From an uncultured Actinomycetota bacterium (lineage in GTDB: Bacteria > Actinomycetota > Actinomycetes > Actinomycetales > CAVURS01), in contig CAWIBR010000011.1 in NCBI GenBank assembly GCA_963834425.1, positions 3,308-67,307 on the forward strand: a stretch of DNA of 64,000 bases, given 5' to 3'. The notes under the pieces are model-generated. The model worked only from the letters and a program-made list of their open reading frames with translations, searched no databases and was not told the origin of the DNA. Made by a program: the position numbers and the translations under genes. This document shows positions 9,400 to 29,529 of this stretch, in pieces (position 1 is the first letter of the stretch; every line of letters starts with the position of its first letter).

Positions 9400-9401
9400 C
9401 A

Positions 9402-10335: not shown

Positions 10336-10456
10336 GGCCACAGCGGCAACTCCTCGTCACGACGGCGCTCACCACCGTAGGGCACGACCCGGCAGTGTGA
10401 TCTCGCTGTAACACGACGGCCTCTAGCCTCGGCCTAGCCAGTCGCGGAGGTGTGCC

Positions 10457-13262: not shown

Positions 13263-14302
13263 GGTGCCCTGTCGGCCGCCAGGAGCAGCTGGCCTAGCCG
13301 CGCCGAGTCGCGTTCGGCGTGGTGCTGGCGGACGTAGAGCTGCAGGTCCGCGATCCGGCGGGTGTGCTCCTCCTCGACTGCCAGGGGCCCGGGACCGAGC
13401 GTGTGTCCCGCGGCCTCGATGACGGATTCGACTGCAGCAGCGACGATCCCGCGCACCCGCTCGGCCAACACGACACCCGCCGGGCCGTCAGCGTGGCCGC
13501 GGTCGATCCGGTCGGCGGTGTCGGCGAGAGCCAGGCGACAGGCCGTGACGTGCAGGTCGATCCGGCCCAGGTGCATCGTCGCGATCTGGTCGGGTTCGCG
13601 GGACGAGGCGGCGGCCCAGACCCGCCGGGCCACGCCGATCAGGCCGCCGTACCAGCAGGCGGCGACGCCCAGGCCGCCCCACGCGAAGCCGGGACGCGTG
13701 AGGTACCAACCGGTTTCGCCGACCGGGGTGGCTGGCGTGTGGTCCAAGGCGATCGAGGTGCTCCGCACGTCGGCCAGGCCGCGAGCGACCCACCGATCGT
13801 CGCCGGCACCCACCGTCGGTGACGTCAGGTCGATGGCGAAGAGCCGGCGTCCGTCGCCGACGTGGGCCGTGATCAGCGCCCGGTCGTTGAGGTCGGCGGC
13901 CGAGCACCACGGTTTGGTGCCGCTGAGCCGCCACCCGTCAGAGGTCTCCGTCGCGTCGATCCGCAGGCCCGGACCCTCGGCGGCATAGACGCCCCACACG
14001 GCCCGGTCCTCGACGTGCTCGGCTCCGCTCTCGGCCAGGATGGCCAGGGCGTCGAGGTGTGCCTCGGCGATCCGGGCGACCGAGAGGTCACCGGCGGCCA
14101 GGCTGGCCAACAGCTCCCAGCGCTCGAGGGTCCGCCCGCCCGCCGGCGCGGCGACACCGGCGCTCAGCCCGCGGGCCAACTCGACCGCCGCGGCCGCGCG
14201 CCCGCCCGTGCCCTGGGCCGCCGCCGCGAGATCGTCCAACCGAGTGGGCCCGCCGCCATGGGGTCCGTCGACGGGCCGCAGGTGAACGGCGGTCGCCTTC
14301 AT
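13256..14302 (-). CDS. Acyl-CoA dehydrogenase-like flavoprotein
   Basis: ARIAEAHLDA, WRLSGTKPWCS and DLQLYVRQHH motifs. Confidence 0.8.
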   Translation of the reverse strand: MKATAVHLRPVDGPHGGGPTRLDDLAAAAQGTGGRAAAAVELARGLSAGVAAPAGGRTLERWELLASLAAGDLSVARIAEAHLDALAILAESGAEHVEDRAVWGVYAAEGPGLRIDATETSDGWRLSGTKPWCSAADLNDRALITAHVGDGRRLFAIDLTSPTVGAGDDRWVARGLADVRSTSIALDHTPATPVGETGWYLTRPGFAWGGLGVAACWYGGLIGVARRVWAAASSREPDQIATMHLGRIDLHVTACRLALADTADRIDRGHADGPAGVVLAERVRGIVAAAVESVIEAAGHTLGPGPLAVEEEHTRRIADLQLYVRQHHAERDSARLGQLLLAADRAPW

Positions 14303-15150
14303 GCGGATGCCTCGGTGAGGGCCGGCAGAGCCGGCGGCATCAGCCGACTGGGCAGGGCGTGCGGCATCGAGGCGCTGTGGGCGTCGTTCGGCAGCAAGCA
14401 GGCGCGCAGGTAGCCGGCGAAGCCGCCCGCCTCGACTCGCCCCTCGGGACGCCCACTCGTGCGGACGGTCGCCCCGCGTGAGGCGACGACGTGCCAGCCG
14501 CGCGTCTCGGCGGCCCGGACGAGGCTGACGTCCTCGTGGGCCGCGCGGCCGGCAAACCCGCCACAGTCGAGATAGCAGTCAGCCCGGATCCCCAGGTTGG
14601 CGCCGTGCACGTGCGGGTGCCCGTCAACGCGGAGATAGGCGGCCCGCCACGCGGCGTACCGGGTCGGTCCGCACTCGATCTGGTCAGGGTCGACCAGGCC
14701 GCACACCAGGTCGGCTCCGGCGTCGGCCTGGCCCACCTGATGGATCAGCCAGTCCCGCGGGACGCGAGAGTCCGCGTCCGTATTGAGGATCCACGTCTGG
14801 GCGGCCGCTGCCGCCGCCGTGAGCTCCAGGCCGTGGGCGACGGCGACCGACCGCGCAGCGCCGACTCGGCCCACCGCGGCGTGGAGGGTCCGAACCCACG
14901 GAAAGCGGGCGACGACCTCGGCCGTCCGGTCGGTGCAGCAGTCGAGGGCGGCGACCGTGATGACCCGGGGGACCGGCCGCCGCTCGAGTTGGGCCTCGCG
15001 CTGGAGCGCATCGACAGCCAGCCCGATCGAAGCTAGGCAGCCGCCGACGCGCGCAGCCTCGTTGCGCACGGGGACGGCGATCAGGATGTCGGCGATGTCC
15101 GACCGACCGCTCTGGCCGGTCGCTCGACCTCGGGCCGGCAGACGCGACAT
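14299..15150 (-). CDS. GT2 family glycosyltransferase
   Basis: VPVRNE, NTDADS (DxD), HVHGANLG and GGF...HED motifs. Confidence 0.85.
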   Translation of the reverse strand: MSRLPARGRATGQSGRSDIADILIAVPVRNEAARVGGCLASIGLAVDALQREAQLERRPVPRVITVAALDCCTDRTAEVVARFPWVRTLHAAVGRVGAARSVAVAHGLELTAAAAAAQTWILNTDADSRVPRDWLIHQVGQADAGADLVCGLVDPDQIECGPTRYAAWRAAYLRVDGHPHVHGANLGIRADCYLDCGGFAGRAAHEDVSLVRAAETRGWHVVASRGATVRTSGRPEGRVEAGGFAGYLRACLLPNDAHSASMPHALPSRLMPPALPALTEASA

Positions 15151-15342
15151 GACAGGGAGCTCCGCCCGGCGAAATCTGAAGGCGACTGCATCACCTAGCC
15201 CTCACGGTAGGTCCTACCAGCGGGCACGCAACCCGAGACATCAGGGGGCTACGCGAGGCCGACGATCTGGCGCAGCGGGAACTGTTCGGTATCTCGACCG
15301 GCCGTGCCGCATCGTCGACCGGGCTGGCTAACTGCCGGCGCC

Positions 15343-16080
15343 TCAGAGCACAAGGCGGACGGCGTGCAGGCGCTCGTAGTCCGGCCGGCTGCGCTCGGCG
15401 GCCTCGCGGGCGACGCCGTCCAGCGTGATGTCGCGCGGGCGGTAGGGCTCGAAGCCCGTGGACGCGCGGACCGCGGCGTACCAGTGGGGCGCCCACACGC
15501 CGTCGGATACTCGTGCTCCCGGCGGCCAGTGCAGCATCGCCGGTGTGAAGTCGATGCCGACGAAGGCACACAGCCAGCGTAGGTAGCCCTCGGGGTCGCG
15601 CAGGAAGTCGGCTGCGTCAATCACCGGAGTCGCGTCGCCGAGCTGGTCGTAGAGCTCGCCCTGCTGCACCAACCCGATGTCCTCGGCGACGACGTTGGCC
15701 CTCGACCGGACGTACGACGCCACGACCTCGACCGGGTCGCGGATCAGCAAAACGTTGGTGAGCAAGGGAATCCAGTCTCGTGGGAGCTGCGGGACCAGAT
15801 GGTGGGTCATGTGTTTTTGGTAGTAGACGCCATCGACCGGCGCCGTCAGCTCCGCGACCACCGTGCGCCAGGACGTCGACCCGGCCGCGATCACCTCATC
15901 CCGGACGGGATGGTCCAGCCCGGTCTCGGCCAGGTAGTAGGCGTAGAGCGGCTCGTCGACGACGCGGCAGTCCGGCCGGTTCTCCCACGACCGCATCAGC
16001 GCGGTCGAGATGTTGCGCGGCCCGGACCAGACGGCCAGCCGGACGCCGGCGCTTGGGCTCGCGATCCGGCTGGGGCTCAT
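15343..16080 (-). CDS. Sulfotransferase-fold P-loop protein (aminotransferase-IV associated)
   Basis: WSGPRNISTALMRSW, VVDEPLYAYYL, YQKHMTHH, LIRDP and DGVWAPHWY motifs. Confidence 0.82.
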   Translation of the reverse strand: MSPSRIASPSAGVRLAVWSGPRNISTALMRSWENRPDCRVVDEPLYAYYLAETGLDHPVRDEVIAAGSTSWRTVVAELTAPVDGVYYQKHMTHHLVPQLPRDWIPLLTNVLLIRDPVEVVASYVRSRANVVAEDIGLVQQGELYDQLGDATPVIDAADFLRDPEGYLRWLCAFVGIDFTPAMLHWPPGARVSDGVWAPHWYAAVRASTGFEPYRPRDITLDGVAREAAERSRPDYERLHAVRLVL

Positions 16081-17012
16081 GGCGACTGGCGTCCAGCGAC
16101 GTCCCCGCGGACCAGCTCGGCGTAAAGCTGCTGCAGCCGGCCGACGACGGGGCCGCGCTGGCCAGTGCCGATCGTCCGCCCGTCGACGGTGTGCACCGGC
16201 ACCACGCCGGCGAAGGTCCCGGTGACGAACGCCTCGTCGGCGCTGTAGACCTGGGTCAGGCTGAAGTTCTTCTCCCGCGCCGTGATCCCTTGTCGCGCAC
16301 AGATCTCCAGGACATTGGACCGGGTGATCCCCCCGAGGCAGTAGTCGCCGGTCGACGTCCACACCTCACCCCTGCGGGCGATGAAGAAGTGGGTTGAGTT
16401 GCACGTGGCGACGAAGCCATGCGGGTCCAGCATCAACGCCTCGTCCGCCCCGGCCGTGTAGGCCTGGATGCACGCTGTGATGTCGCCCAGCTTGCTATGC
16501 GCGTTGAGCTTCGGGTCGAGGGTGTCCGGCGCCGCACGCCGCACATGCACAGTGAAGAGCGAGAGCCCCTGCTCGACCGTCGCCGGCAGCGGATCCTTGT
16601 GCTCGGCGATGATCACGACCGTGGCCGGCCCGGCTGACAGCCGCGGATCTTGGTACGGCGTGGATTTTGGCCCACGCGTGACCATGAGCCGGATGTGCAC
16701 CCCGTCGCCGGTCATCTCGTTGGCGGCCAGGGTCCGATAGATCCGCTCGGTCAGCTCCTCGCGGGTCAGCCCGATGTCCAGCGCGATCGCGGCGGCGCCC
16801 TCCCAGAGCCGGTCGAGGTGCTGCTCCAGGAAGGCCGGGTGCCCGTCGGCGACCCGCAGCCCCTCCCAGACCCCGTCGCCGAGGACGAAGCCCGCGTCGA
16901 AGACGCTGACGACCGCCTCGCGCCGGGGGACCAGCTCGCCGTTGACGCTGATCTGGATCGTCTCGTTGCGGGGATCCTCGACGTGGTCGTGCGTCCCGTG
17001 GGCCGGGCTCAT
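16077..17012 (-). CDS. Class IV PLP aminotransferase (BCAT/D-AAT-like)
   Basis: VSVFDAGFVLGDGVWEGLR, HLDRL, LGGITR and ADEAFVTGTFAG motifs. Confidence 0.9.
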   Translation of the reverse strand: MSPAHGTHDHVEDPRNETIQISVNGELVPRREAVVSVFDAGFVLGDGVWEGLRVADGHPAFLEQHLDRLWEGAAAIALDIGLTREELTERIYRTLAANEMTGDGVHIRLMVTRGPKSTPYQDPRLSAGPATVVIIAEHKDPLPATVEQGLSLFTVHVRRAAPDTLDPKLNAHSKLGDITACIQAYTAGADEALMLDPHGFVATCNSTHFFIARRGEVWTSTGDYCLGGITRSNVLEICARQGITAREKNFSLTQVYSADEAFVTGTFAGVVPVHTVDGRTIGTGQRGPVVGRLQQLYAELVRGDVAGRQSP

Positions 17013-17428
17013 GTCCAGGCCAGCCGCAGTTCGAGCAGCTCCGCGAGCGGTGCCGACTCGCCGTCGCGGGCACCGACTCCGGAGATCAGCGGCGGCGGGG
17101 ACGGCTCGATGGAGACCGTCCGCCAGCGGCCAAACGCTTGCGGCGCAACGGAAAGCACGTAGTAGTGACCTTCGGCGTCGACGCCGATTGAGTGATCGCG
17201 GCGGAGGTACCAGCCGACGATGCCGGTCCGATAGCGACCGCCGCCGGACCATGGGCGAGCGGTCAGCTCCTCGGTCGCCAAACCGGCGGCGGTGGCCCGC
17301 CGTACGAAGTCGTCGACCAGCAGCTGGGCCTGTGCCGACTCCTGCTCCCGACGTCGCTCCAGCGCGCGGGCGTGGTAGTCCGCCTGCTCGGCGAGCTGCT
17401 CCCGCCGCTCGATCGCGTCGTCGGCCAC
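17009..17428 (-). CDS. Hypothetical protein
   Basis: 139 aa ORF with ATGA coupling to the aminotransferase gene; GWYLRRDHSIGVD segment. Confidence 0.65.
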   Translation of the reverse strand: MADDAIERREQLAEQADYHARALERRREQESAQAQLLVDDFVRRATAAGLATEELTARPWSGGGRYRTGIVGWYLRRDHSIGVDAEGHYYVLSVAPQAFGRWRTVSIEPSPPPLISGVGARDGESAPLAELLELRLAWT

Positions 17429-17444
17429 CGGCCCACCCTAGGAC

Positions 17445-18425
17445 GTGGCCCGACGTGAACAGTGGGCGCTGGGGCTGTTCCTCGCCGTCGTCGGCTCCGT
17501 AGGCTGCCACGGTGCCCAGTCATCATCGCACGACCATCAGCACGGCCATCCCCTGAGACTGGACGGGCTCGACCTCGCCGGCCACCGGATCGGCGAGGAC
17601 CACGACGACGACCCGATCCTGCTCGCCCCCGACGGCCGACCGGTCGACACCTGGCGGGAGAACTACCCCTACGAGGAGCGGATCGACCGCCGGGACTACG
17701 ACGAGCAGAAGTACCTGCTCCAGGTCGAGCTGCTCAAGCTGCAGAACTGGGCGGTGGAGACCGGCAGCAAGCACGTCATCGTCTTCGAGGGTCGTGACGC
17801 TGCGGGCAAGGGCGGCACCATCAAGCGGTTCATGGAGCACCTCAACCCGCGCACCGCCCGGGTCGTCGCGCTGGCCAAGCCGACCGAGCGCGAGCGCGGC
17901 CAGTGGTACTTCCAGCGCTACGTGCACCACCTGCCCACCGAGGGCGAGATCGTGCTCTTCGACCGCAGCTGGTACAACCGCGCCGGCGTCGAGCGAGTCA
18001 TGGGTTTCGCCAGCCAACAGGAGTACGACGAGTTCATGCGCCAGGCCCCGCTCTTCGAGCACATGCTGAGTGAGAGCGGCGTCCACGTCACCAAGTTCTG
18101 GTTCTCGGTGACCCGGTCCGAGCAGCGCACCCGCTTCATCATCCGGCAGGTCGACCCGGTCCGGCAGTGGAAGCTGTCGCCGATCGACCTGGAGTCGCTC
18201 GGCAAGTGGGACGACTACACCGAGGCCAAGGAACAGATGTTCCGGCTCACCGACACCGACGAGGCGCCCTGGACGACGATCAAGTCCAACGACAAGAAGC
18301 GCGCGCGCCTGAACGCCATGCGCTCCTTCCTGGTCCAGTTCGACTACGCGAACAAGAACGACCTGGTCGTCGGCACGCCCGACCCCCTGCTGGTGGCCCG
18401 CGGGATCGACGCCGTCGGCGACTGA
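17445..18425 (+). CDS. ppk2: Polyphosphate kinase 2
   Basis: FEGRDAAGKGG Walker A, WYFQRY, FDRSWYNRAGVERVMGF, WKLSP.D and SNDKKRAR; true start uncertain. Confidence 0.93.
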   Translation: MARREQWALGLFLAVVGSVGCHGAQSSSHDHQHGHPLRLDGLDLAGHRIGEDHDDDPILLAPDGRPVDTWRENYPYEERIDRRDYDEQKYLLQVELLKLQNWAVETGSKHVIVFEGRDAAGKGGTIKRFMEHLNPRTARVVALAKPTERERGQWYFQRYVHHLPTEGEIVLFDRSWYNRAGVERVMGFASQQEYDEFMRQAPLFEHMLSESGVHVTKFWFSVTRSEQRTRFIIRQVDPVRQWKLSPIDLESLGKWDDYTEAKEQMFRLTDTDEAPWTTIKSNDKKRARLNAMRSFLVQFDYANKNDLVVGTPDPLLVARGIDAVGD

Positions 18426-18427
18426 CC

Positions 18428-18510
18428 TTTGGCCGTCGAAACCGGGTTCGTCGGCGGACATATCGGGCGCCCAACCCGGTTTCGACGGCCAAACCCGGTT
18501 TCGACGGCCA
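18428..18510. repeat. Inverted repeat with a tandemly duplicated right arm (terminator/REP-like)
   Basis: TTTGGCCGTCGAAACCGGGTT (18428-48) pairs with AACCCGGTTTCGACGGCCAAA (18473-93); a second arm copy lies at 18492-18510; located between convergent genes. Confidence 0.8.
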
Positions 18511-18518
18511 GGACAGTC

Positions 18519-19100
18519 CTAGCCCGGAGCCTGCTGCGGAGACTGGGCCTGCGCTTGCAGGATGTCGAGCAGCGCGGCCGCGATGTCCTTGGGCGGCGAC
18601 TCGGCCACGGACAGCGCTGTGTCGGTGCGCAGGATGCCCTCGACGTCCCAGATGGCGTTCTGCAGGAAGGTCCGCAGGTGGGCGTGGTCGCGGACCCGGG
18701 CTCGCACGACCATGTCGATGTTGCCGGTGACGATCAGCACGTCCTCGACCTCGGGGATGGTCATCAGCTGGTTCATCACCTCGCCCATCTCATAGCCCAG
18801 GTCGATGGTGACGTTGATGTAGACCACGGTCGTGAAACCCAAGGCCTGCCAGTCGATCCGGGTCGTGTAACCGGTGATGACACCGAGCCGTTCGAGCCGG
18901 GCGATCCGCGCAGCGAGCGCGGGCGCCGACATGCCGAGCTCACGACCGAGGGCGCGCTGGGACTTGCGGGCGTCGTCGCTCAGCTCGCGCAACAGCCGCA
19001 GGTCGACGTCGTCCAGCTGCACCGGCGGCCGCAGGGCCGGCGCCACCGAGGCGACCGACGCCATCGAGGTGGCCTTCACATGCCGTTTGGGGCGCGCCAT
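18519..19100 (-). CDS. Lrp/AsnC family transcriptional regulator
   Basis: LDDVDLRLLRELSDDAR...LGMS...RIARLERLGVITGY; C-terminal RAM-domain motif VTGNID. Confidence 0.92.
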   Translation of the reverse strand: MARPKRHVKATSMASVASVAPALRPPVQLDDVDLRLLRELSDDARKSQRALGRELGMSAPALAARIARLERLGVITGYTTRIDWQALGFTTVVYINVTIDLGYEMGEVMNQLMTIPEVEDVLIVTGNIDMVVRARVRDHAHLRTFLQNAIWDVEGILRTDTALSVAESPPKDIAAALLDILQAQAQSPQQAPG

Positions 19101-19143
19101 CGTCGGTCTCCCTGCTCCTCGCGATCCGGCCACACCAGCAAAC

Positions 19144-19920
19144 TCAGGCGTACGACGCTGTCGGCGCCCACCGCAACGTTGCGGCCTGCTCGGCGTCGTG
19201 CCCGTAGAGCATCATCGCGCTCCGCTCCTGGGCCAGGTCGCGCAGCCGGTGGGCGCTCTCCCGCGCCGTCACCGGGTCGGACTGGCTGTCCCACGAGTCG
19301 CGGTCGAAGTTGCCCTGGCTGTAGACCGCGTCGCCGCACAGGATGACCGAGCCGGTCTCCGGCAGGTCCAGGACGACGGACTGGTGGCCCGGCACATGCC
19401 CGGGAGTCGGCAGCACCCGCAGGCCGTCGAACAGCTCGCGCTCGCCGTCGACCAGCTCGTAGCTCAGGGCGGGCAGCCGCCAGTACTGGTTGGGGAAGCT
19501 GGGGTGGTCGATAGCGAAGTCGTACTGCTCGCGTTGCACGAAGAAGGTCGCCCGGCCGAGCAGGTCGTTGTTGCCCGCGTGGTCGAAGTGCAGGTGCGTG
19601 TTGATGACGATGTCGACGTCCTGCGGAGCCAGCCCGAGCTGGTCGAGCCGCACGAGCAGGCTGTCCTCGGGGGTCATGATCGCCCGGAGCGCGGCGTTCG
19701 GCGTGCCCCGCCAGGTCAGGTCCGGATCGTCGATGTGCAGCCGGCTCATGCCGGTGTCGACGAGCACCAACCGCTCGTCGGCCAGCCGGATCAGGTAGCC
19801 GGCCACCGGCACCTGCACCACGTCGCCGTCGTGCAGGCCGGGCACGATCTCCTCGGCCGGCAGCGCGCAGTGCCCGAGCGGCAGGACATGGAGCTCGACG
19901 GGCGACATGGCGCCGCTCAC
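19144..19920 (-). CDS. Metallo-beta-lactamase-fold lactonase (AiiA/AHL-lactonase-like family)
   Basis: LVDTG, THLHFDHAG, TPGHVPGHQS, GDA and YGHD motifs; GTGA overlap with the upstream gene (alternative ATG at 19908). Confidence 0.88.
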   Translation of the reverse strand: MSGAMSPVELHVLPLGHCALPAEEIVPGLHDGDVVQVPVAGYLIRLADERLVLVDTGMSRLHIDDPDLTWRGTPNAALRAIMTPEDSLLVRLDQLGLAPQDVDIVINTHLHFDHAGNNDLLGRATFFVQREQYDFAIDHPSFPNQYWRLPALSYELVDGERELFDGLRVLPTPGHVPGHQSVVLDLPETGSVILCGDAVYSQGNFDRDSWDSQSDPVTARESAHRLRDLAQERSAMMLYGHDAEQAATLRWAPTASYA

Positions 19921-20729
19921 TCTCCGGCCATCGACGAGACCCCGATGGCGGTGAGCCGCTCCTCGCGGGTGTCGAGGTCGACGGTCAGGACCTGGTGGTT
20001 GGCCAGCGGTCGCCAGTCGGGGCTGTCGCTGACGATGCCCGAGGAGACGACCGCGACCTGGTCCGGCCGGGTCCGGTAGGCGAGCGGCAGGTACTTCGGC
20101 AGGACCACGCCCGAGGCCAGGTCGTCGGCCGGCCAGACCGGGATGGTGCTGGGCTCCCATTTCCCGTCGTGCTCCGCGATCACCTGCAAGGTCTCCGGGC
20201 CGAGCATCATCGCGTTGAGGCTGTTGCCGACCAGCCCGTGCTCGGCCATCCGGTCCAGCACGCGGCGTACGGCGTCGGCCAGGTCCGCGCCGTCGGCCAG
20301 CTCGTCGCGCAGCGCGAGGAAGTAGCGCTCGCTGTCGGTGCGGCCGCTGACTCGGCCCAGGTCGCCGCGGACCAAGAGGTCGATCTTGGCCCGCGGGCCG
20401 ATCGCTCCGTTGTGGGCGAAGGCCTGCGCCCCGGCGACGAACGGGTGGGTGTTGTCCGGCCCCTCGCCGTAGCCGGGCGTCCCCAACCGCAGGTGCACGA
20501 TGGCCGACCGGGCCGTGCGCCCCTCGGCGAACTCGCGAAAAGCGTTGTCCTGATGGGCAGGCAGCAACGAACGCTGGGTCTGCAGCGCGCCCTGCTCGTC
20601 GTGCCACGCGGCGCCCCAGCCGTCGCAGTGCACGGTCGAGAGATGGGTCAATCGGTCGAGGGCAGCCGGGCCGAGCACGGCCGCGAGTGACGTCGGCTCG
20701 GCGCTCACCCAGCCGACCAGCCGGCACAT
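19917..20729 (-). CDS. Class II (Ntn) glutamine amidotransferase-like hydrolase (EgtC/YafJ-like)
   Basis: N-terminal MCRL (Cys nucleophile), DGWG, HLR, NTHPF, FAHNG and TDSE motifs. Confidence 0.9.
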   Translation of the reverse strand: MCRLVGWVSAEPTSLAAVLGPAALDRLTHLSTVHCDGWGAAWHDEQGALQTQRSLLPAHQDNAFREFAEGRTARSAIVHLRLGTPGYGEGPDNTHPFVAGAQAFAHNGAIGPRAKIDLLVRGDLGRVSGRTDSERYFLALRDELADGADLADAVRRVLDRMAEHGLVGNSLNAMMLGPETLQVIAEHDGKWEPSTIPVWPADDLASGVVLPKYLPLAYRTRPDQVAVVSSGIVSDSPDWRPLANHQVLTVDLDTREERLTAIGVSSMAGE

Positions 20730-21964
20730 CAGGCGCCGCCCGATGTGCGGTCCCAGGCCTGCCGGACCAGACGGCCGAGGATCTCGACGCCGGACCCGAT
20801 GTCGGGCACGGTGGCCCGGCTGTAGGACAGACGGAGGTACTCGTGGTGGTCCTGCCGGCTGAAGAACGCGACGCCGGGCACGAAGGCGACCCCGGCCTCG
20901 CGAGCCTGCGCCGCGAGCTCGACCGTGTCGACGCCGGGCACCTCGAGCCAGCAGAAGAAGCCGCCCTGCGGCTGGGTCCAGGTGACCGACGCGGGCATGT
21001 GGTCGGTCAGGGCCTGGTGCATGGCCGCGCCGCGCTGGGCGTAGAAGTCACGTTCGATCTTGACCTGCGGGCCGAAGTAGCCGCGCCGCAGGTACTCCTC
21101 GACCATCCGCTGCCCGAACGCCCCCGCGCACTGGTCGGAGTTCTGCTTGGCGACGGCGAGCTGCTCGATGATCTCGGCCGGGCCGGCGGCCCACCCCAGC
21201 CGTACGCCGGGGAAGAAGGTCTTGGAGAAGGTGCCCAGCTGCACGACCAGGTCCGGCGCGAGCGAGTGCAGGCTGGGCAGGCGCTCGTCGCTGAAGCCGA
21301 GCTCGCGGTAGGCCACGTCCTCGGCGATCAGGATCTGGTGCGCGCGACACAGCTCCACCAGTGCGTGCCGGCGCTCGAGCGACATGGTGCGCCCGGTCGG
21401 GTTCTGGTACTCCGGGATCGTGTAGACCACCTTGGGCACCTGGCCCCGCTCGACCAGCGCGGCCAGACCGTCGACCACCAGCCCGTGCTCGTCGATCGGC
21501 ACGCCCTGCACGACCGCGTCCTGGCCGGTGAAGCCGGTGACGGCTCCGACGTAGCTCGGCTCCTCGACGACCACGACGTCGCCGGGGTCGAGCATGCTCC
21601 GGGCGATCAGGGTCACCCCGTCGATGCCGCCGCTGGTCACCATCAGCTCGCCCGGCCCGGGTCGCTGACCGTCGATCTCGAACAGGTGGTCGGCGATGGC
21701 CTCGCGGGTGGTGGCGATGCCCTCGCTCGCGGCGTACTGGAGCGCGACTGCCGGGTCGTCGCGGATCAGGTCGGCCGCGATGCTGGCCAGCGCATCGGAG
21801 GGGAAGACCTCGGGCGCGGGGAAGCCGCCCGAGAAGTTGATCAGGCCCTGGGCGTTGGCCAGCGCCAGGATCGCGGTGATCGAGCCGTCCTTGCCGACCG
21901 TGCGCTGCGCCAGCCGAGACGTCCAGGTCATGGTCATGCTCGCCGCCTCCTCCTCAGACCCCAC
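20729..21964 (-). CDS. Class I/II PLP aminotransferase (LysN/2-aminoadipate-type)
   Basis: INFSGGFP, VVEEPSY, YQNPTG, EDVAY and GTFSKTFFPGVRLGW motifs. Confidence 0.9.
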   Translation of the reverse strand: MGSEEEAASMTMTWTSRLAQRTVGKDGSITAILALANAQGLINFSGGFPAPEVFPSDALASIAADLIRDDPAVALQYAASEGIATTREAIADHLFEIDGQRPGPGELMVTSGGIDGVTLIARSMLDPGDVVVVEEPSYVGAVTGFTGQDAVVQGVPIDEHGLVVDGLAALVERGQVPKVVYTIPEYQNPTGRTMSLERRHALVELCRAHQILIAEDVAYRELGFSDERLPSLHSLAPDLVVQLGTFSKTFFPGVRLGWAAGPAEIIEQLAVAKQNSDQCAGAFGQRMVEEYLRRGYFGPQVKIERDFYAQRGAAMHQALTDHMPASVTWTQPQGGFFCWLEVPGVDTVELAAQAREAGVAFVPGVAFFSRQDHHEYLRLSYSRATVPDIGSGVEILGRLVRQAWDRTSGGA

Positions 21965-22002
21965 TCAGACCTCACTCACCTCTCAGATCTGCTCAGATCT
22001 AC

Positions 22003-22797
22003 TCAGACGTACTTGCCCATGCCGCCGGCCACGTCGATGACCGCGCCGGTGATGTAGCTCGCCCGGTCGCTGGCCAGGAAGGTCACCAGTCCCGAGACCT
22101 CCTCCACCGTCCCGAACCGGCCCAGCGGCACCTCGGTCTTGGCCAGGCCGTCCAGGAACGCATCCAGGGACAGGTCCGGCGCCCGGCGGGAGCGGATGTT
22201 CTCCCACTGCGGCGTGACGACGAAGCCGATGTTGACCGAGTTGACCAGGATCGCCTCGGCGCCGAACTCCGTGGCCAGCGCCTTGTTGAGGTTGAGGCAC
22301 GCGGCCCGGTTGACCGTGGTGGCGAAGAACGCCGGGTCGGGGTACTTCGCATAGACCGCGTTGATGTTGATCACCCGAGCGGCCGGGCTGCGACGCAGAT
22401 GCGGCAAAGCCGCTCGGACACAACGGATCTGGGAGAACAGCTTGACGTCGAGGTCGGCGTGCCAGTCCTCGTCGGTCAGGCTCTCGAAGTTGCCGGGGTG
22501 GGCTCCGCCGGCGTTGTTGACCAGGATGTCGATGCCGCCCATGGCCGCGGCCATCGCGTCGACGAACGCCGTGACCTGCGCGGGGTCGGCCACGTCAGCG
22601 ACCGCATGATGTACGCCGCGTGCGCCCTGCGCGGAGACGGCAGCGATGTCGTCGGCCGCAGCCTCGAGCTCGGTGCCATTGCGGGAGCAGATCGCGACGG
22701 CCGCGCCCTCGGCCGCCAGCTCGCGCGCGATGGCCAGCCCGATCCCCTTGGAGCCGCCGGTCACGACCGCGCGGCGCCCGGAGAGCCCTAGCTCCAT
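22003..22797 (-). CDS. Short-chain dehydrogenase/reductase
   Basis: TGGSKGIG and DILVNNAG; atypical active site (no YxxxK; TVNRAA instead). Confidence 0.9.
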   Translation of the reverse strand: MELGLSGRRAVVTGGSKGIGLAIARELAAEGAAVAICSRNGTELEAAADDIAAVSAQGARGVHHAVADVADPAQVTAFVDAMAAAMGGIDILVNNAGGAHPGNFESLTDEDWHADLDVKLFSQIRCVRAALPHLRRSPAARVININAVYAKYPDPAFFATTVNRAACLNLNKALATEFGAEAILVNSVNIGFVVTPQWENIRSRRAPDLSLDAFLDGLAKTEVPLGRFGTVEEVSGLVTFLASDRASYITGAVIDVAGGMGKYV

Positions 22798-23264
22798 CAG
22801 CTCGTCCCGGCGCCTGCGCCCGCCGAGTCGGCCGAGGCCGCCGAGTCGCCGGACTCCGTCGGGAGCGCGGCGCGCGCCGCGTCGAGCAACGTTGCGCGCG
22901 GCGGGTTGAAGACGTCGATCTCGCGACAGCCACCCTCGCGGGCGATGGCACCGTGCGGCACCCACGGCGGGATGACGGCCAGGTCGCCGGGTCGCAGCGT
23001 CCGCTGCTCGCCGTCGATGGTGAAGTCGAGCTCCCCCTCGATCATCAGCACGATCTGCTCCTCGACGTGCACGTGCATCGGCGCCTCGGCGTGCGGGGCG
23101 AAGGTGACGAAGTTGGCCAGCATCTGCTCGCCCAGCACCGGCTGGAAGTTCACACCGGGCGCGAACTCGACGCCGGCCACGTCCTCGACGTGGACGAACC
23201 GGCCCGGCGCCGTCGGCGTACCCCCGGCCTCCAGGCTGAAGTGGGTCTGGTCGCTGGCAGACAT
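22797..23264 (-). CDS. Cupin domain protein
   Basis: PMHVHVEEQ...EGEL and LRPGD...IPPWVPHG motifs. Confidence 0.88.
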   Translation of the reverse strand: MSASDQTHFSLEAGGTPTAPGRFVHVEDVAGVEFAPGVNFQPVLGEQMLANFVTFAPHAEAPMHVHVEEQIVLMIEGELDFTIDGEQRTLRPGDLAVIPPWVPHGAIAREGGCREIDVFNPPRATLLDAARAALPTESGDSAASADSAGAGAGTS

Positions 23265-23329
23265 CTGAGCCTCCGAGGGCGGGGTTCGAAGTGGGCCGGT
23301 GGATCTTGACAGGACTTTACACATGCCAC

Positions 23330-23344
23330 TTGACTACCGGTCAA
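23330..23344. promoter_or_regulatory. Possible operator palindrome in the divergent promoter region
   Basis: TTGAC-taccg-GTCAA flanked by the direct repeat CACATGCCA, in a lower-GC intergenic region. Confidence 0.4.
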
Positions 23345-23425
23345 CGCCTTACGTTTCACATGCCAGTCCCGAAAAGGGCTGGCGCATGCGTCGAGCCCTG
23401 CGGGGCGGATCGGGAGGCCAGCGCG

Positions 23426-24943
23426 ATGGGCGGTCACACCAGCGACATCTCCACCACGGCCGGGATCGGCCGCAGTGGGTTCGTCGCCGAGCACGGGCTG
23501 CACACCCCGGCCCAGCTCGCGGCGGTCGAGGAGGTGCTGGCCCGGATCGACGAGCTCGGCCTGCGCACCATCCGGGTGATCGTCGTCGACCAGCACGGCC
23601 AGCCTCGCGCCAAGTTCTTGTCGCCGCGCGCTGCCTCGGCTGCCTTCACCAACGGCGTCGACTTCTCCGGCGCGATCTACAGCCTGGACACCGGCAACCA
23701 CGTCTTCCCGCCGGCGTTCGCCGATGGCGGCGGCATCGGGATCGAGGAGCTCACCGGCTTCCCCGACGTGGTGATCGTGCCGGACCCGTTCACCTTCCAG
23801 GTCCTGCCCTGGGCACCGGACACCGGCTGGGTCATCTGCGACGCCTACTTCTCCTCCGGCCGGCCGATGCCGCTGGACGGCCGGCGGCTGCTACGCCAAC
23901 AGCTCGACCGGCTGGGCGACCGCGGCCTGCGCTACCTGTCCGGGCTCGAGGTCGAGTTCAACATCTTCCGGCGCTCGTCACCGTTGATCGGGCTGGATCA
24001 GACCGGTCAGCCCGGGCCGCCGCCCGAGGTCGACGTCTTCCAGCTCGGGTACCAGTACCTCTCCGAGGTCCGGATGGACTCGGTCAACGAGACCCTGACC
24101 GCCCTGCGCGACGGGCTCTCGGCCATCGGCCTGCTGCCGCGGTCGATGGAGGACGAGTGGGGCCCGGGCCAGATGGAGTTCAGCTTCAGCCCGATGGAGG
24201 GCCTCGGCTCGGCCGATGCGATGGTGCTCTTCCGCAGCGCCGTGAAGCAGATCTGCCAGCGGCGCGGGTTGCTGGCGTCGTTCATGTGCTGGCCGCACCT
24301 GCCGAACTTCTTCCCTTCGGGCTGGCACCTGCACGGGTCGCTGCTGGATGCCAGCGGGGCCAACGTCTTTGCCTCTGCGGATCAGGTGCTCTCGCCGACG
24401 GCCCAGTCCTACCTGGCCGGCGTGCTCGACCACGCGCAGGCGATGACGCCGTTCGCGACGCCGACCATCAACGGGATCCGGCGGTTCCGGCCCTACTCCT
24501 TCGCGCCCGACCGGGTCGCCTGGGCAGTCGAGAACCGCGGCGCTCTGGTGCGCGTTCAGGGTGGTCCGGGTGACAGCGGCACCCACCTGGAGAACCGGCT
24601 GGGGGAGCCGGCGGCCAACCCCTACCTCTACCTCGCGGCCGACATCGCGGCCGGCCTGGACGGGATCGAGCGCGACCTCACTCCGCCCGAGCCGATCCGT
24701 GGAAACCCTTACGAGAGCGACGCGCCCAGCCTGCCGACGACATTGGGCGAGGCCCTGGATGCACTGGACGCCGACGCGATGTACCGCAAGCAGTTCGGCG
24801 ACGGCTTCGTCGACTACCTGCTGATGATGAAGCGCGAGGAGCTCACCCGGGCTCAGGACGAGACCGCGGGCGAGCTGGTGACCGACGACCCGGATGCGGC
24901 CGCCCGTGACTGGGAGATGAAGGAGTACTTCGAGTTCTACTGA
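23426..24943 (+). CDS. Glutamine synthetase family gamma-glutamyl ligase (TdnQ/AtdA1-like)
   Basis: GLEVEF, EDEWGPGQME, SGWHLH, ENRGALVRV and LENRLGEPAANPYL; N-terminus FVAEHGL...FADGGGIGIEELTG.PD...VPDP.TF.VLPWA..TGW resembles my recollection of TdnQ. Confidence 0.88.
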   Translation: MGGHTSDISTTAGIGRSGFVAEHGLHTPAQLAAVEEVLARIDELGLRTIRVIVVDQHGQPRAKFLSPRAASAAFTNGVDFSGAIYSLDTGNHVFPPAFADGGGIGIEELTGFPDVVIVPDPFTFQVLPWAPDTGWVICDAYFSSGRPMPLDGRRLLRQQLDRLGDRGLRYLSGLEVEFNIFRRSSPLIGLDQTGQPGPPPEVDVFQLGYQYLSEVRMDSVNETLTALRDGLSAIGLLPRSMEDEWGPGQMEFSFSPMEGLGSADAMVLFRSAVKQICQRRGLLASFMCWPHLPNFFPSGWHLHGSLLDASGANVFASADQVLSPTAQSYLAGVLDHAQAMTPFATPTINGIRRFRPYSFAPDRVAWAVENRGALVRVQGGPGDSGTHLENRLGEPAANPYLYLAADIAAGLDGIERDLTPPEPIRGNPYESDAPSLPTTLGEALDALDADAMYRKQFGDGFVDYLLMMKREELTRAQDETAGELVTDDPDAAARDWEMKEYFEFY

Positions 24944-24989
24944 CGTACGCCGAGGCAACGACCCCTGAACCATTGCCTGGAGACAATTG

Positions 24990-25340
24990 ATGACCGTTCA
25001 GCACGTCGTGTTGTTCGCGTTCGCGGAGGAGCTGTCGGCCGCGGACGACTACGAGATGCGGGCCCAGGTCGAGAGCTGGCCGGAGGAGATCGGCCAGATC
25101 AACGTGATCCGGCTCGGCCGCGACATCACCGGTGCGCGCACTCGGGGGCACCAGTACCTGCTCTACACGGAGTTCGACTCCGAGGATCTCCTGCACCGCT
25201 ACCAGCAGCACCCCGTGCACCAAAAGTTCCTGGCCTGGGTCCTCGACCATGACTGCACACCGCTGGCGTTCGACTACGAGCTGACGAAAGACACCGTCAT
25301 CTGGCCGCTGAGCGCGCCGGATTCCCCTGAGGAGCAATGA
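24990..25340 (+). CDS. Dabb (stress-responsive A/B barrel) protein
   Basis: HVVLF, YQQHPVHQ and AFDYE motifs. Confidence 0.82.
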   Translation: MTVQHVVLFAFAEELSAADDYEMRAQVESWPEEIGQINVIRLGRDITGARTRGHQYLLYTEFDSEDLLHRYQQHPVHQKFLAWVLDHDCTPLAFDYELTKDTVIWPLSAPDSPEEQ

Positions 25341-25341
25341 G

Positions 25342-26820
25342 ATGAGCACGACCTCCCAACCGGGCTCCGCACAGCCGGAGCAGCATCTGGCCAAAGGGAC
25401 GCTCTCGACCCTGGACGCCATCGTCATCTCGGTGTCCGTCCTGGCACCCGGCATGGCGATGTTCCTCAACGTCCCCGGCGTCGCCGCCGTAGCCGGAGGC
25501 TCCACGCCGTTGGCCTTCCTGCTCGGCGGGATCGCGTGTCTGGCGCTGGCCTTCGTCGTCATCGGCTTCACCCGGCGGATGGCCGCGGCGGGTTACGCCT
25601 ACACCTACGCCAGCCGGAGCCTGGGCAAATCCGCGGGCTTCATGGCCGGCTGGCTCTATGCCTTCGGGCTGATCTGCTTCGTGCCCATGACGATGGCCGG
25701 GGTGGCCTACCTGACCGTCGACCTGCTGAAGCTGGACTCCGGCTGGTGGTTCCCGATCTTCCTGGTCGGGATGGCCCTCCTGGTGGTGCTGTCGATCATC
25801 CGGATCAAGGTGACGACCAAGTTCCAGCTCATCGTCGGGATCATCTCGGTGGCGCTGATCGTGATCGTCGACCTGGTCGTGACGGCCAAGGGCGGCGCCC
25901 ACGGCAACTCGCTCCAGCCGTTCACCTTCGCGCACACCAACAAGGGCGGCTTCAACGGAGTCTTCTACGGGATCATCCTCGGCATCACGTCGTACATCGG
26001 CTTCGAGACCGCGGCCGACTTCGGCGAGGAGACGGCCAACCCCCGCAAGGCCATCCCGATCGCCGTGCTGGCCTCGGTCGGTTTCGCGATCGTGTTCTAC
26101 CTGTGGACCACCTACAGCCTGACCATCGGTTTCGGCGACGGTGCGAAGTTCGGCTCCGACCCCTCGGCGCTGAAGACGATCGCGGAGGAGTTCGTCGGCG
26201 GACCATTGCCACAGCTGCTCGAGATCGGCGCGCTGCTCTCGGCGTTCGTCGTCTGCGTCGGCTGCGCGACGGCCGGGACCCGCACGCTCTTCGCCATGGG
26301 CCGCGAGGGCGTGCTGCCGGGCTGGCTGGCCAAGACCCACCCCAGGTTCCAGACACCGGCCAATGCCACCTTGGCCGTCGCCGCCGTGAGCACGGTGCTC
26401 GCGGCATTCGTCGGCTTCGTCATGGGGCAGGACGCGCTGGGCGGGGACGCGATCACCGTCTACTACTTCTTCGCCACCCTCGGCACGCTGCCGGTCATCG
26501 TGGTCTACATCGGGCTCTGCCTGGGTGGAGCGGTCTTCTTCAAGCGGACCCAAAAGTCCTACAACCCGCTGATCCACCTCGTGGTGCCGATCATCGGTGC
26601 CCTGCTGTTCGCCGCCGCGCTCTACGGCTCGATCTACCCGACTCCGCCGCACCCGCTGAACTACACGCCGTACATCACGCTCATCTGGATCATCATCGGC
26701 GTGATCGTGGTGTCGATGCTGCGCTCGCGACGGCCCGAGGCCGTCCAGCGGATCGGCTCGATCCTCGGCGAAGAGGGCGGCGGGGAAGAGGACCTCGAGC
26801 ACGTGGTCGCCAAGATCTGA
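25342..26820 (+). CDS. APC family amino acid/amine permease
   Basis: About 12 TM segments; GYAYTY, GFETAADFGEETANP and RTLFAMGREGVLP..L.KTHP.FQTP motifs. Confidence 0.92.
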   Translation: MSTTSQPGSAQPEQHLAKGTLSTLDAIVISVSVLAPGMAMFLNVPGVAAVAGGSTPLAFLLGGIACLALAFVVIGFTRRMAAAGYAYTYASRSLGKSAGFMAGWLYAFGLICFVPMTMAGVAYLTVDLLKLDSGWWFPIFLVGMALLVVLSIIRIKVTTKFQLIVGIISVALIVIVDLVVTAKGGAHGNSLQPFTFAHTNKGGFNGVFYGIILGITSYIGFETAADFGEETANPRKAIPIAVLASVGFAIVFYLWTTYSLTIGFGDGAKFGSDPSALKTIAEEFVGGPLPQLLEIGALLSAFVVCVGCATAGTRTLFAMGREGVLPGWLAKTHPRFQTPANATLAVAAVSTVLAAFVGFVMGQDALGGDAITVYYFFATLGTLPVIVVYIGLCLGGAVFFKRTQKSYNPLIHLVVPIIGALLFAAALYGSIYPTPPHPLNYTPYITLIWIIIGVIVVSMLRSRRPEAVQRIGSILGEEGGGEEDLEHVVAKI

Positions 26821-28203: not shown

Positions 28204-29529
28204 ATGGCTCGCATCCTGGTGGCCACCACCCCCGTGCCCGGGCACGTCAACCCGGTCGCCACGTTGACCCGACGACTCGTCGAGCGCGGCAACGAGGTCG
28301 TCTGGTACACCGGCGCCGGATTCGCCGCTGCCGTCGAGGCAACCGGCGCGCGGCACGCGCCCATCACCCACCGCGCCGACTGGAGCCTGGTCAACCCGCA
28401 CGATCAGGTCCCGCAGCTGCGCGACCTGACCGGGCTCGATCAGGTCCGCACGGCGTTCCGGCACCTCTTCATCGACGCTGCGCCCGACACCCTGGCCGAT
28501 CTGGAGACCATCCTGGAGACCTTCGACGCCGACGTCGTCGTCGCCAACGGGCTGGTGATCGCCGACCGCTGGCTGGCCGAGCGCGGCGGCCCGCCGAGCG
28601 CCAACATCGCCACGACGATGTACGGCCTCTACAGCAAGGACACCGCGCCGTTCGGGCCCGCGCTGATGCCGAAGGGCGGCCCGGTTGGGCGGCTGCGCAA
28701 CACGGCGATGAACACCGTGCACCGCAAGGTGCTCTTCCGCTCGGTCAACCGGCACCTCGACGACGCCCGCGAGCAGGTCGGCCTGCCGCGACGCGGCCAG
28801 GCCGTGCTCGACTCGTTCCTCTCGCCGTACCTCTATCTGCAGGACTGCACGCCCTCGTTCGAGTACCCACGCTCGGACATCCCGCCGCAGCTGCACTTCA
28901 TCGGCCCGCTGCTGCCGTCGGCGCCGACCGACTTCGAGCCGCCCGCGTGGTGGCCCGAGCTCGAGTCCGGCCGGCCGGTGGTGCTCGTGACCCAGGGCAC
29001 GGTGCGCAACGAGGACGACCTCCTCTTCGCGCCGGCCTTCGAGGCGCTCGCCGGCGAGGACGTTCTGGTGATCGCCACGACCGGTGGGGGCTCGCCGCGG
29101 CTCGGCCCGCTGCCGGCCAACGTCCGCCTCGAGTCCTACGTCCCCTTCGCATCGCTGATGCCGCACGTCTCGGCCTACGTCACCAACGGCGGGTACGGCG
29201 GGGTGCAGCTCGCCCTGGCCAACGGCGTGCCGATCGTCGTGTCCGGTGCCACCGAGGACAAGCCCGAGGTCGCAGCCCGGGTGGCCTGGTCGGGCGCCGG
29301 TGTGCGGATCCGGGAGCCGAGGCCTCAGGCGGCCGCGATCCGGGCGGCCGTGCGGACCGTGCTGGACGACCCGTCGTACCGGCTGGCCGCCGGCCGGATT
29401 GCGACCGACATCGCGGCGAGCGACGCCCCGGAGACCGGCGCTCGACTGGTCGAGCGGTTGGCCGCCACGGGCCAGCCGGTGCTGCGCTCCGATCTGTCGG
29501 CGGAGCCGGTGCTGGACCGGGCGATGTGA
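28204..29529 (+). CDS. GT1 (UDPGT/MGT-like) glycosyltransferase
   Basis: GHVNP, VLVTQGT and YVTNGGYGGVQLALANGVPIV...EDKPE.AARV.W.GAG motifs. Confidence 0.9.
   Translation: MARILVATTPVPGHVNPVATLTRRLVERGNEVVWYTGAGFAAAVEATGARHAPITHRADWSLVNPHDQVPQLRDLTGLDQVRTAFRHLFIDAAPDTLADLETILETFDADVVVANGLVIADRWLAERGGPPSANIATTMYGLYSKDTAPFGPALMPKGGPVGRLRNTAMNTVHRKVLFRSVNRHLDDAREQVGLPRRGQAVLDSFLSPYLYLQDCTPSFEYPRSDIPPQLHFIGPLLPSAPTDFEPPAWWPELESGRPVVLVTQGTVRNEDDLLFAPAFEALAGEDVLVIATTGGGSPRLGPLPANVRLESYVPFASLMPHVSAYVTNGGYGGVQLALANGVPIVVSGATEDKPEVAARVAWSGAGVRIREPRPQAAAIRAAVRTVLDDPSYRLAAGRIATDIAASDAPETGARLVERLAATGQPVLRSDLSAEPVLDRAM

Follow-up and report, generated by a model that had tools for sequence, protein, structure and literature searches.

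The 64,000-nucleotide stretch analyzed here, referred to below as the window, comes from an uncultured Actinomycetota bacterium (GenBank assembly GCA_963834425.1, contig CAWIBR010000011.1, positions 3,308 to 67,307 of the forward strand). At 18519-26820 it carries a gene cluster centered on a ligase of the glutamine synthetase (GS) family that is predicted to couple glutamate to an organic amine. The original prediction, a model's reading of the letters and open reading frames alone, had described nine genes in two divergent arms, and all nine were recovered in place by Pfam and NCBIfam scans. They form two divergent operons with six genes on the minus strand and three on the plus strand, arranged as follows.

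18519..19133, minus strand: Lrp/AsnC transcriptional regulator (Pfam HTH_24, HTH_AsnC-type and AsnC_trans_reg)
19144..19920, minus strand: metallo-beta-lactamase (MBL)-fold lactonase-like hydrolase, accessory (Lactamase_B, E 3e-24)
19917..20729, minus strand: class II glutamine amidotransferase (GAT)-fold N-terminal nucleophile (Ntn) amidohydrolase, predicted gamma-glutamyl amide hydrolase (GATase_4, E 1.4e-11)
20729..21964, minus strand: class I/II pyridoxal phosphate (PLP) aminotransferase of the LysN / KAT II / MocR-AAT-domain group (Aminotran_1_2, E 1.8e-34)
22003..22797, minus strand: short-chain dehydrogenase/reductase (SDR) with an atypical center (adh_short_C2, E 5.9e-49)
22797..23264, minus strand: single-domain metal cupin (Cupin_2, E 2.6e-16)
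23265..23425, no strand: divergent intergenic region of 161 nt, presumed promoter/operator (sequence reading)
23426..24943, plus strand: GS-like gamma-glutamyl organic-amine ligase, predicted (Gln-synt_C, E 3.4e-75)
24990..25340, plus strand: Dabb (dimeric alpha+beta barrel) protein, possibly catalytic (Dabb, E 8.2e-16)
25342..26820, plus strand: APC-superfamily amino acid/amine permease (AA_permease_2, E 7.2e-39)

Transcription of the minus-strand operon runs through the cupin, SDR, aminotransferase, Ntn, MBL and Lrp genes, in that order. The overlapping stop and start codons mentioned in the original prediction were seen at three junctions: cupin/SDR and aminotransferase/Ntn each show a TGATG overlap of 1 nt when the DNA is read directly, and Ntn/MBL shows a GTGA overlap of 4 nt if the GTG start is used. 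On the plus strand, the Dabb and APC genes are separated by 1 nt and the ATG of the ligase is preceded by GGGAGG. The start of the Lrp gene is uncertain between a GTG at 19133 and an ATG further in. The G+C content of the window is about 70% and mechanical lists of open reading frames are therefore crowded. The nearest flanking genes, PPK2 (17445-18425) and a glycosyltransferase (28204-29529), are unrelated to the cluster. Short contigs spanning the Lrp-MBL, MBL-Ntn and cupin|ligase junctions occur in soil and peat DNA runs from several studies, so the gene order is not an artefact of assembly, though one of these runs may be the window's source sample. No RNA run was listed as carrying the stretch.

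The ligase scored under the cut-off of every GS model in NCBIfam, with 222.8 bits for the type III GS/GmaS-like model (cut-off 469.6), 222.7 bits for the PuuA model NF045547 (650) and 203.4 bits for the GlnA model TIGR00653 (429.15). Its top match in the Protein Data Bank (PDB) was 8wwu (E 2e-124, 419 bits, residues 17-503 on 20-508), and the second-best match reached 162 bits. PMC11335346 describes 8wwu as NpaA1, an enzyme of Pseudomonas sp. JS3066 that gamma-glutamylates 1-naphthylamine and shares 90% identity with AtdA1. Plasmid relatives of the window ligase at about 45-49% identity adjoin Rieske oxygenases; Delftia pLME1 and Sphingobium YBL2, for example, carry the classical cluster of ligase, class I GAT, oxygenase alpha and beta subunits, reductase and LysR regulator. 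Further plasmid relatives adjoin amidases or class I GATs. A tree of 44 rows was built from every third row of the clade and eleven chosen rows, leaving out L084, a truncated paralogue from the same genome (quick IQ-TREE search, SH-aLRT support only, no bootstrap). The window ligase, 31 relatives and all seven plasmid references formed a single 39-row clade with SH-aLRT 99, which includes DcaQ/TdnQ of pLME1, AdoQ, two other Rieske-linked ligases and an FzmN-like ligase. Outside it fell three groups: E. coli GlnA with a GlnA1-like paralogue from the window's genome, another paralogue of that genome, and PuuA with a third one. As PuuA and two of these paralogues are on long branches, their precise positions in the tree are unsure.

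The residues of the active site agree with this placement. In a 91-row alignment, E129, E131, E212, E220, H269, R321, R339, R344, E357 and R359 are kept in the ligase, which amounts to all metal, ATP and glutamate residues of GlnA, whereas Asp50 of the ammonium site is replaced by Ser and Glu327 of the flap by Phe in 79/79 clade rows (E. coli numbering, with the roles that we take these residues to have). TdnQ-type references carry Thr and Leu at the same two positions. The equivalent GS residues of B. subtilis are tabulated in PMC6478659. The ligase also possesses an extra N-terminal loop, the '15th motif', which is not found in E. coli GlnA and aligns with V68-M81 of NpaA1, where it lines the amine tunnel according to PMC11335346. 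The version of the loop found in the clade, NGxDFSGAIYSLDtgNxVFxPAF, is at least 90% conserved, differs from the TdnQ-type loop and is more polar. By our own alignment, in which the PDB chain is offset by 15, Leu, Val, Phe, Tyr and Trp of the window ligase occupy the positions of the NpaA1 tunnel residues F75, M81, F86, V201 and W235, so that Trp235 (in the string MEDEW) is shared. Judged by sequence, the enzyme is a member of the TdnQ/AtdA1/NpaA1 branch and not a glutamine synthetase, in line with the TdnQ-like, non-GlnA1 ligase originally proposed. The accompanying proposal of an aromatic or heterocyclic amine as substrate fared unevenly: it can be inferred from the ligase family, but the tunnel loop is unlike that of TdnQ and more polar. 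Because this loop is fixed across phyla, one natural substrate is favored over a range of xenobiotics. A separate observation concerns P0099, a 641-residue relative with 67% identity in which a GS catalytic domain and an AsnC/Lrp ligand-binding domain are combined; regulator and ligase may be truly fused here, or else the gene call ran on through an adjacent Lrp gene.

We then considered the distribution of the cluster. A scan of 185,579 species genomes returned 311 stretches encoding a relative of the ligase, of which the best 80 (62-89% identity) were kept. Partners were searched by tblastn with the window proteins, requiring a single high-scoring segment pair with E <= 1e-10 and a query coverage of 60% or more. 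The kept loci belong almost entirely to uncultured Actinomycetota and Dormibacterota from soil; cultured carriers of an orthologue include the Streptomyces of L018 and Pseudonocardia xinjiangensis (P0102). Within 5 kb of the ligase we found Dabb in 72/80 loci, Lrp in 71/80, the APC permease in 70/80, the aminotransferase and the cupin in 65/80 each, the SDR in 61/80 and the Ntn hydrolase in 60/80. The identical order of Ntn, SDR, cupin and aminotransferase on the minus strand followed by Lrp, ligase, Dabb and APC on the plus strand was observed in 44/80 loci, and all seven partners were present in 43 of the 60 loci having enough flanking DNA. The order seen in the window is a rearranged minority form that only L002 shares. 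The two arms thus co-occur in other genomes, as the original prediction had supposed. Overall, eight of the nine window genes constitute a conserved module and the MBL lactonase is the accessory one. The module is rare among sampled species, with a match at E <= 1e-150 and 50-59% identity in only 3 out of a sample of 400 Actinomycetota genomes that did not include the window's own. The same module was also present in four loci (L014, L020, L024 and L038) whose genome bins are labelled Melainabacteria, Gemmatimonadales, Acidiferrales and Saccharimonadales. Their ligase sequences nest among actinobacterial and Dormibacterota ones, which suggests either gene transfer or mis-binning.

The two partners that define aniline-type systems are missing from these neighborhoods. 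No Rieske alpha subunit was detected within about 10 kb of the ligase in any of the 81 sequences (80 loci and the window), three Rieske alpha-subunit queries gave nothing at E <= 1e-5 against the 64-kb window, and no Rieske domains were found on the window's contig. A class I GAT was found in 1/81 sequences, locus L059, and none in the window. The original claim that there is no Rieske gene here accordingly held for the window and the related loci; a class I GAT partner was missing from them too, with L059 as the sole exception. That locus combines a class I GAT, the ligase, the Ntn hydrolase and a canonical SDR.

Turning to the conserved partners, the best PDB matches of the aminotransferase were the multiple-substrate aminotransferase 1wst of Thermococcus (E 8e-75), PH0207, LysN and human KAT II, and its best NCBIfam matches were MocR-regulator aminotransferase-like domains, MppQ and GntC, all under their cut-offs. 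The PLP lysine of the SK motif is kept in 66/67 homologues. By these resemblances we classify it as an alpha-amino-acid/2-oxo-acid enzyme and not an omega-transaminase. The Ntn protein begins with MCRLVGW (Met-Cys), and Cys2 is kept in 61/62 homologues, the remaining one lying outside the alignment coverage. The EgtC model TIGR03442 gave it 65.1 bits, under the cut-off of 218.65, and its nearest solved relatives are 3mdn and EgtC itself (4zfj). The protein is accordingly predicted to be a Cys2 class II amidohydrolase acting as a deglutamylase, which agrees with the class II assignment made originally. A search of plasmids for class II hydrolases returned two matches, neither adjoining a GS-like gene. 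IpuF of the isopropylamine pathway is probably a class II hydrolase, and such an enzyme next to a GS-like ligase may therefore not be unprecedented.

The cupin is a single barrel with a His-His-(Glu/Gln)-His metal site, and H64, H66, E68, E69, Q70 and H104 are invariant in 66/66 homologues. Foldseek searches with its AlphaFold2 model (mean pLDDT 86) placed 4e2g first (38% identity), then 2pfw, KdgF proteins and a cellulose oxidative enzyme, with phosphomannose isomerases, TM1459, BacB and RemF lower down. Target-normalised TM-scores of 0.86-0.94 for 4e2g, 2pfw and KdgF indicate a fold group, not a functional family. Gentisate and quercetin dioxygenases aligned with the cupin at E of about 1e-7 over partial length and were not among the best Foldseek matches. 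The cupin had been put forward as a possible oxygenase; the dioxygenase reading now appears less likely, as the protein resembles the isomerase and ring-opening enzymes KdgF and BacB more, and on this evidence it would more probably act as an isomerase, a tautomerase or a ring-opening enzyme than as an oxygenase. The SDR aligned with Q9HYA2 (3lf1) at E 7e-49, with ATTVNR against ATSAAR, and carries Ala, Thr and Arg at the canonical Ser, Tyr and Lys positions. Among its homologues Arg is found in 61/62 and Ser/Thr in 61/62; the sole homologue lacking Arg is the unrelated canonical SDR of L059. The PRK07062 model gave 242.4 bits, just under its cut-off of 266. Q9HYA2 is a Pseudomonas aeruginosa protein of known structure with the same atypical center as the window SDR; this Thr/Arg center was reportedly described by Huether et al. 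in 2010. A Dabb profile of 26 sequences had olivetolic acid cyclase as its best PDB match (E 3e-12), with H5 and the motif Y-x2-H-P-x-H aligned. In olivetolic acid cyclase Tyr72 and His78 form the acid-base pair, and this motif may be common throughout the Dabb family. The APC permease fell far under the cut-offs of all NCBIfam transporter models. As in the ligase, the catalytic residues in these partners appear intact in the alignments.

Besides the conserved partners, two kinds of hydrolase occur as accessories. The MBL protein carries an HLHFDH metal motif (HxHxDH type) and scored 186.7 bits with the AiiA model (cut-off 375). Only the window and L002, the nearest relative, have its gene adjacent to the others; in 4 more of the 80 loci it is found elsewhere within the locus. 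Lactone opening, which the original prediction listed among its steps, is at most a lineage-specific extra given that the MBL gene stands outside the conserved module. Vitamin B6 degradation, in which the SDR would be a pyridoxal dehydrogenase and the MBL protein a pyridoxolactonase, working alongside an aminotransferase, was considered and rejected, since the MBL protein matched AiiA better than the 4-pyridoxolactonase model (186.7 against 111.9 bits) and is not conserved. More common is an Amidohydro_2 gene, present in the ligase operon of 26/80 loci; in 23 of these its identity to the L051 or L018 query is at least 44%. It is placed after the permease gene, or before the ligase gene in the case of L018. 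The sole PDB match of this amidohydrolase was 2QPX (E 4e-28), and PMC6478659 names 2QPX as the closest homologue of FluG's N-terminal part. No 2QPX-like amidohydrolase was found in the window's 64 kb or in its genome, which is 83% complete. L001, the next relative after L002, retains the amidohydrolase at the end of its contig, and it looks as though in the window and L002 one metal hydrolase was displaced by another, MBL for amidohydrolase.

FluG of Aspergillus and plant NodGS are fusions of an amidohydrolase with a GS-like gamma-glutamyl ligase, and the pairing of an amidohydrolase of the 2QPX template with the ligase operon in 26/80 loci resembles them. The window and its genome differ in lacking the amidohydrolase, and a fused form was not found: searches for longer homologues of the ligase and of the amidohydrolase gave one unrelated fusion each, the best 150 of 1529 representative-search matches were all about 180-420 residues long, and the protein atlas gave GS-family clusters only. 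The link to FluG, which is drawn solely from the shared 2QPX template, is to be taken as a lead only.

Two further loci show the ligase in other company. L018 (Streptomyces sp., 8757-20630) shares the ligase, permease, aminotransferase and Ntn hydrolase and is without cupin and SDR. Its operon comprises the ligase, the permease, an acetylating aldehyde dehydrogenase, a 4-hydroxy-2-oxovalerate aldolase, an E1/transketolase-like protein, the aminotransferase and the Ntn hydrolase, so that the aldolase, the dehydrogenase and the E1/transketolase-like protein stand where the module otherwise has cupin, SDR and Dabb genes. The aldolase and the dehydrogenase match the DmpG (505 bits, cut-off 286) and DmpF (458 bits, cut-off 282) models as equivalogues. 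More distant is L095 on a Streptomyces coelicoflavus plasmid (NZ_CP107979.1, 88164-103642), where a 41%-identical ligase adjoins an amidase, an adenylosuccinate lyase, a GNAT protein, an FAD monooxygenase and a methyltransferase, presumably a gene set of hydrazine-forming (fosfazinomycin/kinamycin-type) biosynthesis.

The strategy of glutamylating an amine, transforming it and removing the glutamate again has precedents in the degradation of aniline and 1-naphthylamine (PMC11335346) and of isopropylamine (PMC6776027). Among the closest known systems are those for aniline, chloroaniline and 1-naphthylamine (TdnQ, DcaQ, AtdA1, NpaA1). They share with the module the ligase branch, as seen in the 39-row clade and the 45-49% identity, the extra N-terminal loop, Trp235 and the lost ammonium site, as well as the pairing of ATP-dependent N-glutamylation with a hydrolase. 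In contrast, the window ligase is accompanied by the aminotransferase, cupin and SDR, the class II Ntn hydrolase, the Dabb protein and the APC permease, and its tunnel differs by F75 to Leu, M81 to Val and V201 to Tyr together with the more polar, clade-fixed loop. Furthermore, the aniline-type systems are found on catabolic plasmids, whereas the module is chromosomal in uncultured soil Actinomycetota and Dormibacterota. Because the defining partners, Rieske dioxygenase and class I GAT, are not there, the module is not an aniline-dioxygenase system.

Other known systems also show resemblances. The Puu (putrescine) and Ipu (isopropylamine) pathways and the GlnA2/3/4 pathways of Streptomyces for polyamines and ethanolamine likewise combine uptake, glutamylation, a change made while the amine is protected and removal of glutamate (PMC6776027, PMC6529630 and PMC5403932). 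Their ligases belong to a different branch, with PuuA and the genome's own PuuA-like paralogue outside the clade, and the window module has no amine oxidase, aldehyde dehydrogenase or P450. With EgtC of ergothioneine synthesis the Ntn protein shares the class II GAT/Ntn fold, the N-terminal Cys nucleophile and, by prediction, gamma-glutamyl removal; it differs in its score, far below the EgtC cut-off, and other ergothioneine genes are not nearby. Finally, KdgF/KduI with KduD, and BacB with BacG/BacF, are sets in which a cupin isomerase, an SDR and an aminotransferase act on 2-oxo acids. KdgF and BacB are the nearest solved relatives of known function of the window cupin, which is similarly grouped with an aminotransferase and an SDR; in bacilysin synthesis BacB lies between an aminotransferase and an SDR. 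The identity is however only 23-30%, there are no uronate or prephenate genes, and the center of the window SDR is non-canonical.

Taking these observations together, we favor the view that the cluster is an Lrp-controlled catabolic or scavenging module built on reversible gamma-glutamylation and dedicated to one conserved natural amine or amino acid, to which we assign a probability of roughly 0.55. In the proposed scheme the APC permease would import a particular natural compound bearing an amino group, and the GS-like ligase, using ATP, would couple that amino group to the gamma-carboxyl of glutamate. The aminotransferase would work on the glutamylated intermediate, making or using a 2-oxo acid, the metal cupin would carry out an isomerisation, tautomerisation or ring opening of the KdgF/BacB type, and the atypical SDR would perform a carbonyl/alcohol step, possibly with assistance from Dabb on an enolisable carbonyl. 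The Cys2 Ntn amidohydrolase would then take the glutamate off, and the whole route would run without an oxygenase. The MBL lactonase of the window and the 2QPX-like amidohydrolase of 26 relatives would be interchangeable add-on hydrolases. We infer this order of steps, and also that the target of the aminotransferase is the alpha-amino acid portion of the substrate itself, in which case glutamylation would keep a second amino group from cyclising onto the newly formed 2-oxo group.

What the substrate might be can be narrowed only tentatively. Our best guess for its class, though we would not bet on it, is an amino acid that has an oxygen function at C4 and whose second amino group is aryl or of low pKa. 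The oxygen at C4 is suggested because L018 has a 4-hydroxy-2-oxo-acid aldolase and the accessories are of the lactonase type; gamma-hydroxy acids form lactones. Single candidates, such as kynurenine-like compounds, hydroxylated diamino acids and homoserine-lactone-like amines, are each considerably more doubtful than the class as a whole. The idea of kynurenine stems from the joint presence of an arylamine-type ligase, a KAT II-type aminotransferase and an Lrp regulator, for which KynR offers an Lrp-type precedent. We keep it as one candidate only, as the genome evidence neither supports nor excludes it. At G000 contig C13:1073583-1074741 the kynureninase model gives two neighboring matches of 179 and 67 bits that lie in different open frames and may represent a frameshifted or split gene.

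Several observations weigh against the proposed module. Under the strict search settings, 17 of the 60 loci with enough flanking DNA are without at least one partner, frameshifted genes being counted among these. Every NCBIfam equivalog model missed, for which reason no partner can be named with confidence, and the chemistry of the SDR is uncertain with the canonical Ser-Tyr-Lys lost. The identity of the substrate and the order of steps are tentative, and the aminotransferase might take the glutamyl moiety itself as its substrate. A tryptophan 2,3-dioxygenase gene and a kynureninase-like gene are located elsewhere in the genome and bring no gain for kynurenine. Lastly, the genome has nine Rieske-domain matches, all on other contigs, and contigs C7, C10 and C13 encode three alpha subunits of ring-hydroxylating oxygenases, so that a partner acting in trans is possible.

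The last point leads to a different explanation, in which the ligase and the Ntn hydrolase are a buffering or detoxification pair for an arylamine, as AtdA1/AtdA2 are, with conversion by a Rieske dioxygenase encoded elsewhere, while an unrelated amino-acid pathway uses the aminotransferase, cupin and SDR. The placement of the ligase in the TdnQ/NpaA1 branch and the three alpha subunits on C7, C10 and C13 speak for it, as does the account in PMC11335346 that the GAT-like protein of the aniline system simply reverses glutamylation. We nevertheless regard it as improbable: a Rieske alpha subunit lies within about 10 kb of the ligase in 0/81 sequences, the aminotransferase, cupin, SDR and Ntn genes share one operon with overlapping codons, their order beside the ligase is conserved in 44/80 loci, and the tunnel loop is fixed in the clade whereas those of xenobiotic ligases vary. 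Should the aminotransferase instead use the alpha-amino group of the glutamyl moiety, in the manner of a glutamine transaminase, an N-substituted 2-oxoglutaramate would result and close to a lactam, whose ring the cupin would open and whose 2-oxo group the SDR would reduce, so that the cluster would make or dispose of N-substituted 2-oxo- or 2-hydroxyglutaramates. Relatives of the aminotransferase do include glutamine/kynurenine transaminases (1v2d, 'glutamine aminotransferase', E 1e-26) and LysN that accept glutamate-like and bulky side chains, and KdgF-type cupins, the structural match here, open ring forms of keto acids. For the amine, however, such a route is circular unless the product is the goal, an EgtC-like Ntn hydrolase would be expected, by inference from EgtC, to need the free alpha-amino acid end of glutamate, and nothing else in the locus points to biosynthesis; it too seems a poor bet.

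A biosynthetic module, in which a gamma-glutamylated small molecule or a glutamate carrier would be formed as by the FzmN/KinL-type hydrazine ligases and the permease would export the product, we consider very unlikely. The L095 ligase, whose neighbors are presumably of the hydrazine type, does fall inside the same 39-row clade, but N-hydroxylase, nonribosomal peptide synthetase, polyketide synthase and tailoring genes were not found in the window or the conserved loci, the ligase is paired with a hydrolase undoing its bond, and Lrp together with an APC permease usually marks amino-acid uptake or catabolism. That the ligase is an ordinary or spare glutamine synthetase in a coincidental neighborhood is scarcely credible. 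Public sources label its relatives 'glutamine synthetase' and the GlnA model does match at 203 bits, but this is far under the cut-off of 429, Asp50 and Glu327 are replaced by Ser and Phe in 79/79 rows, a separate GlnA1-like gene of the genome groups with E. coli GlnA, and the neighborhood is conserved; as far as sequence analysis reaches, this explanation is refuted.

Gamma-glutamylation is a recurring bacterial way to handle reactive amines, yet to our knowledge few routes have been worked out, namely those for putrescine, for isopropylamine, for ethanolamine and polyamines, and for aniline and naphthylamine. Likewise, the arylamine ligase branch is so far known to us only from pollutant-degrading plasmids, where its members act ahead of Rieske dioxygenases. 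The module described here places this branch in a fixed, chromosomal and oxygenase-free context in uncultured soil and peat Actinomycetota and Dormibacterota, and this context therefore indicates a natural substrate and undescribed chemistry. A full-text literature search, most subscription journals being beyond its reach, gave no account of the gene set, consistent with its description as undescribed in the original prediction. What is new is probably the set of enzymes around glutamylation, whereas the strategy to take up, tag, rework and untag an amine was already known. The module also unites an SDR with a Thr/Arg center, a bacterial Dabb protein resembling olivetolic acid cyclase and an amidohydrolase resembling 2QPX and the FluG N-terminal region, and finding one substrate could assign a role to all of them. 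A bolder extension holds that the clade represents a second, oxygenase-free form of arylamine-type glutamylation in which glutamate protects a diamino acid during transamination, with the bacterial amidohydrolase and ligase as a free-standing counterpart of FluG/NodGS. We think this unlikely as a whole; its candidate substrates would be a kynurenine-like or C4-oxygenated diamino acid, or an amine freed by the 2QPX-like hydrolase. If true, the bacterial substrate would point to the long-sought class of FluG substrates.

Some minor sequence features of the locus are also worth recording. The divergent spacer is richer in A+T and contains a 15-nt direct repeat, ACTTTACACATGCCA at 23314-23328 and ACGTTTCACATGCCA at 23351-23365, 37 nt apart, which is a candidate Lrp operator or promoter element; a promoter scan of 23265-23425 did not find a sigma-70 consensus. 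The 38-nt spacer between the SDR and aminotransferase genes (21965-22002, minus strand) contains four copies of the hexamer TCTGAG, with GATCTGAG occurring twice. These TCTGAG repeats are unusual for a spacer within an operon and could act as a regulatory or translational signal. Just past the Lrp stop codon on the minus strand (18473-18509), before the end of the PPK2 gene is reached, an 18-nt unit, GGCCGTCGAAACCGGGTT, is present in two tandem copies with 1 nt between them. Further out, upstream of PPK2 at 13256-17510, lie genes for a class IV aminotransferase of the branched-chain/D-amino-acid type, a sulfotransferase-domain protein and a family 2 glycosyltransferase, which are unrelated to the cluster.

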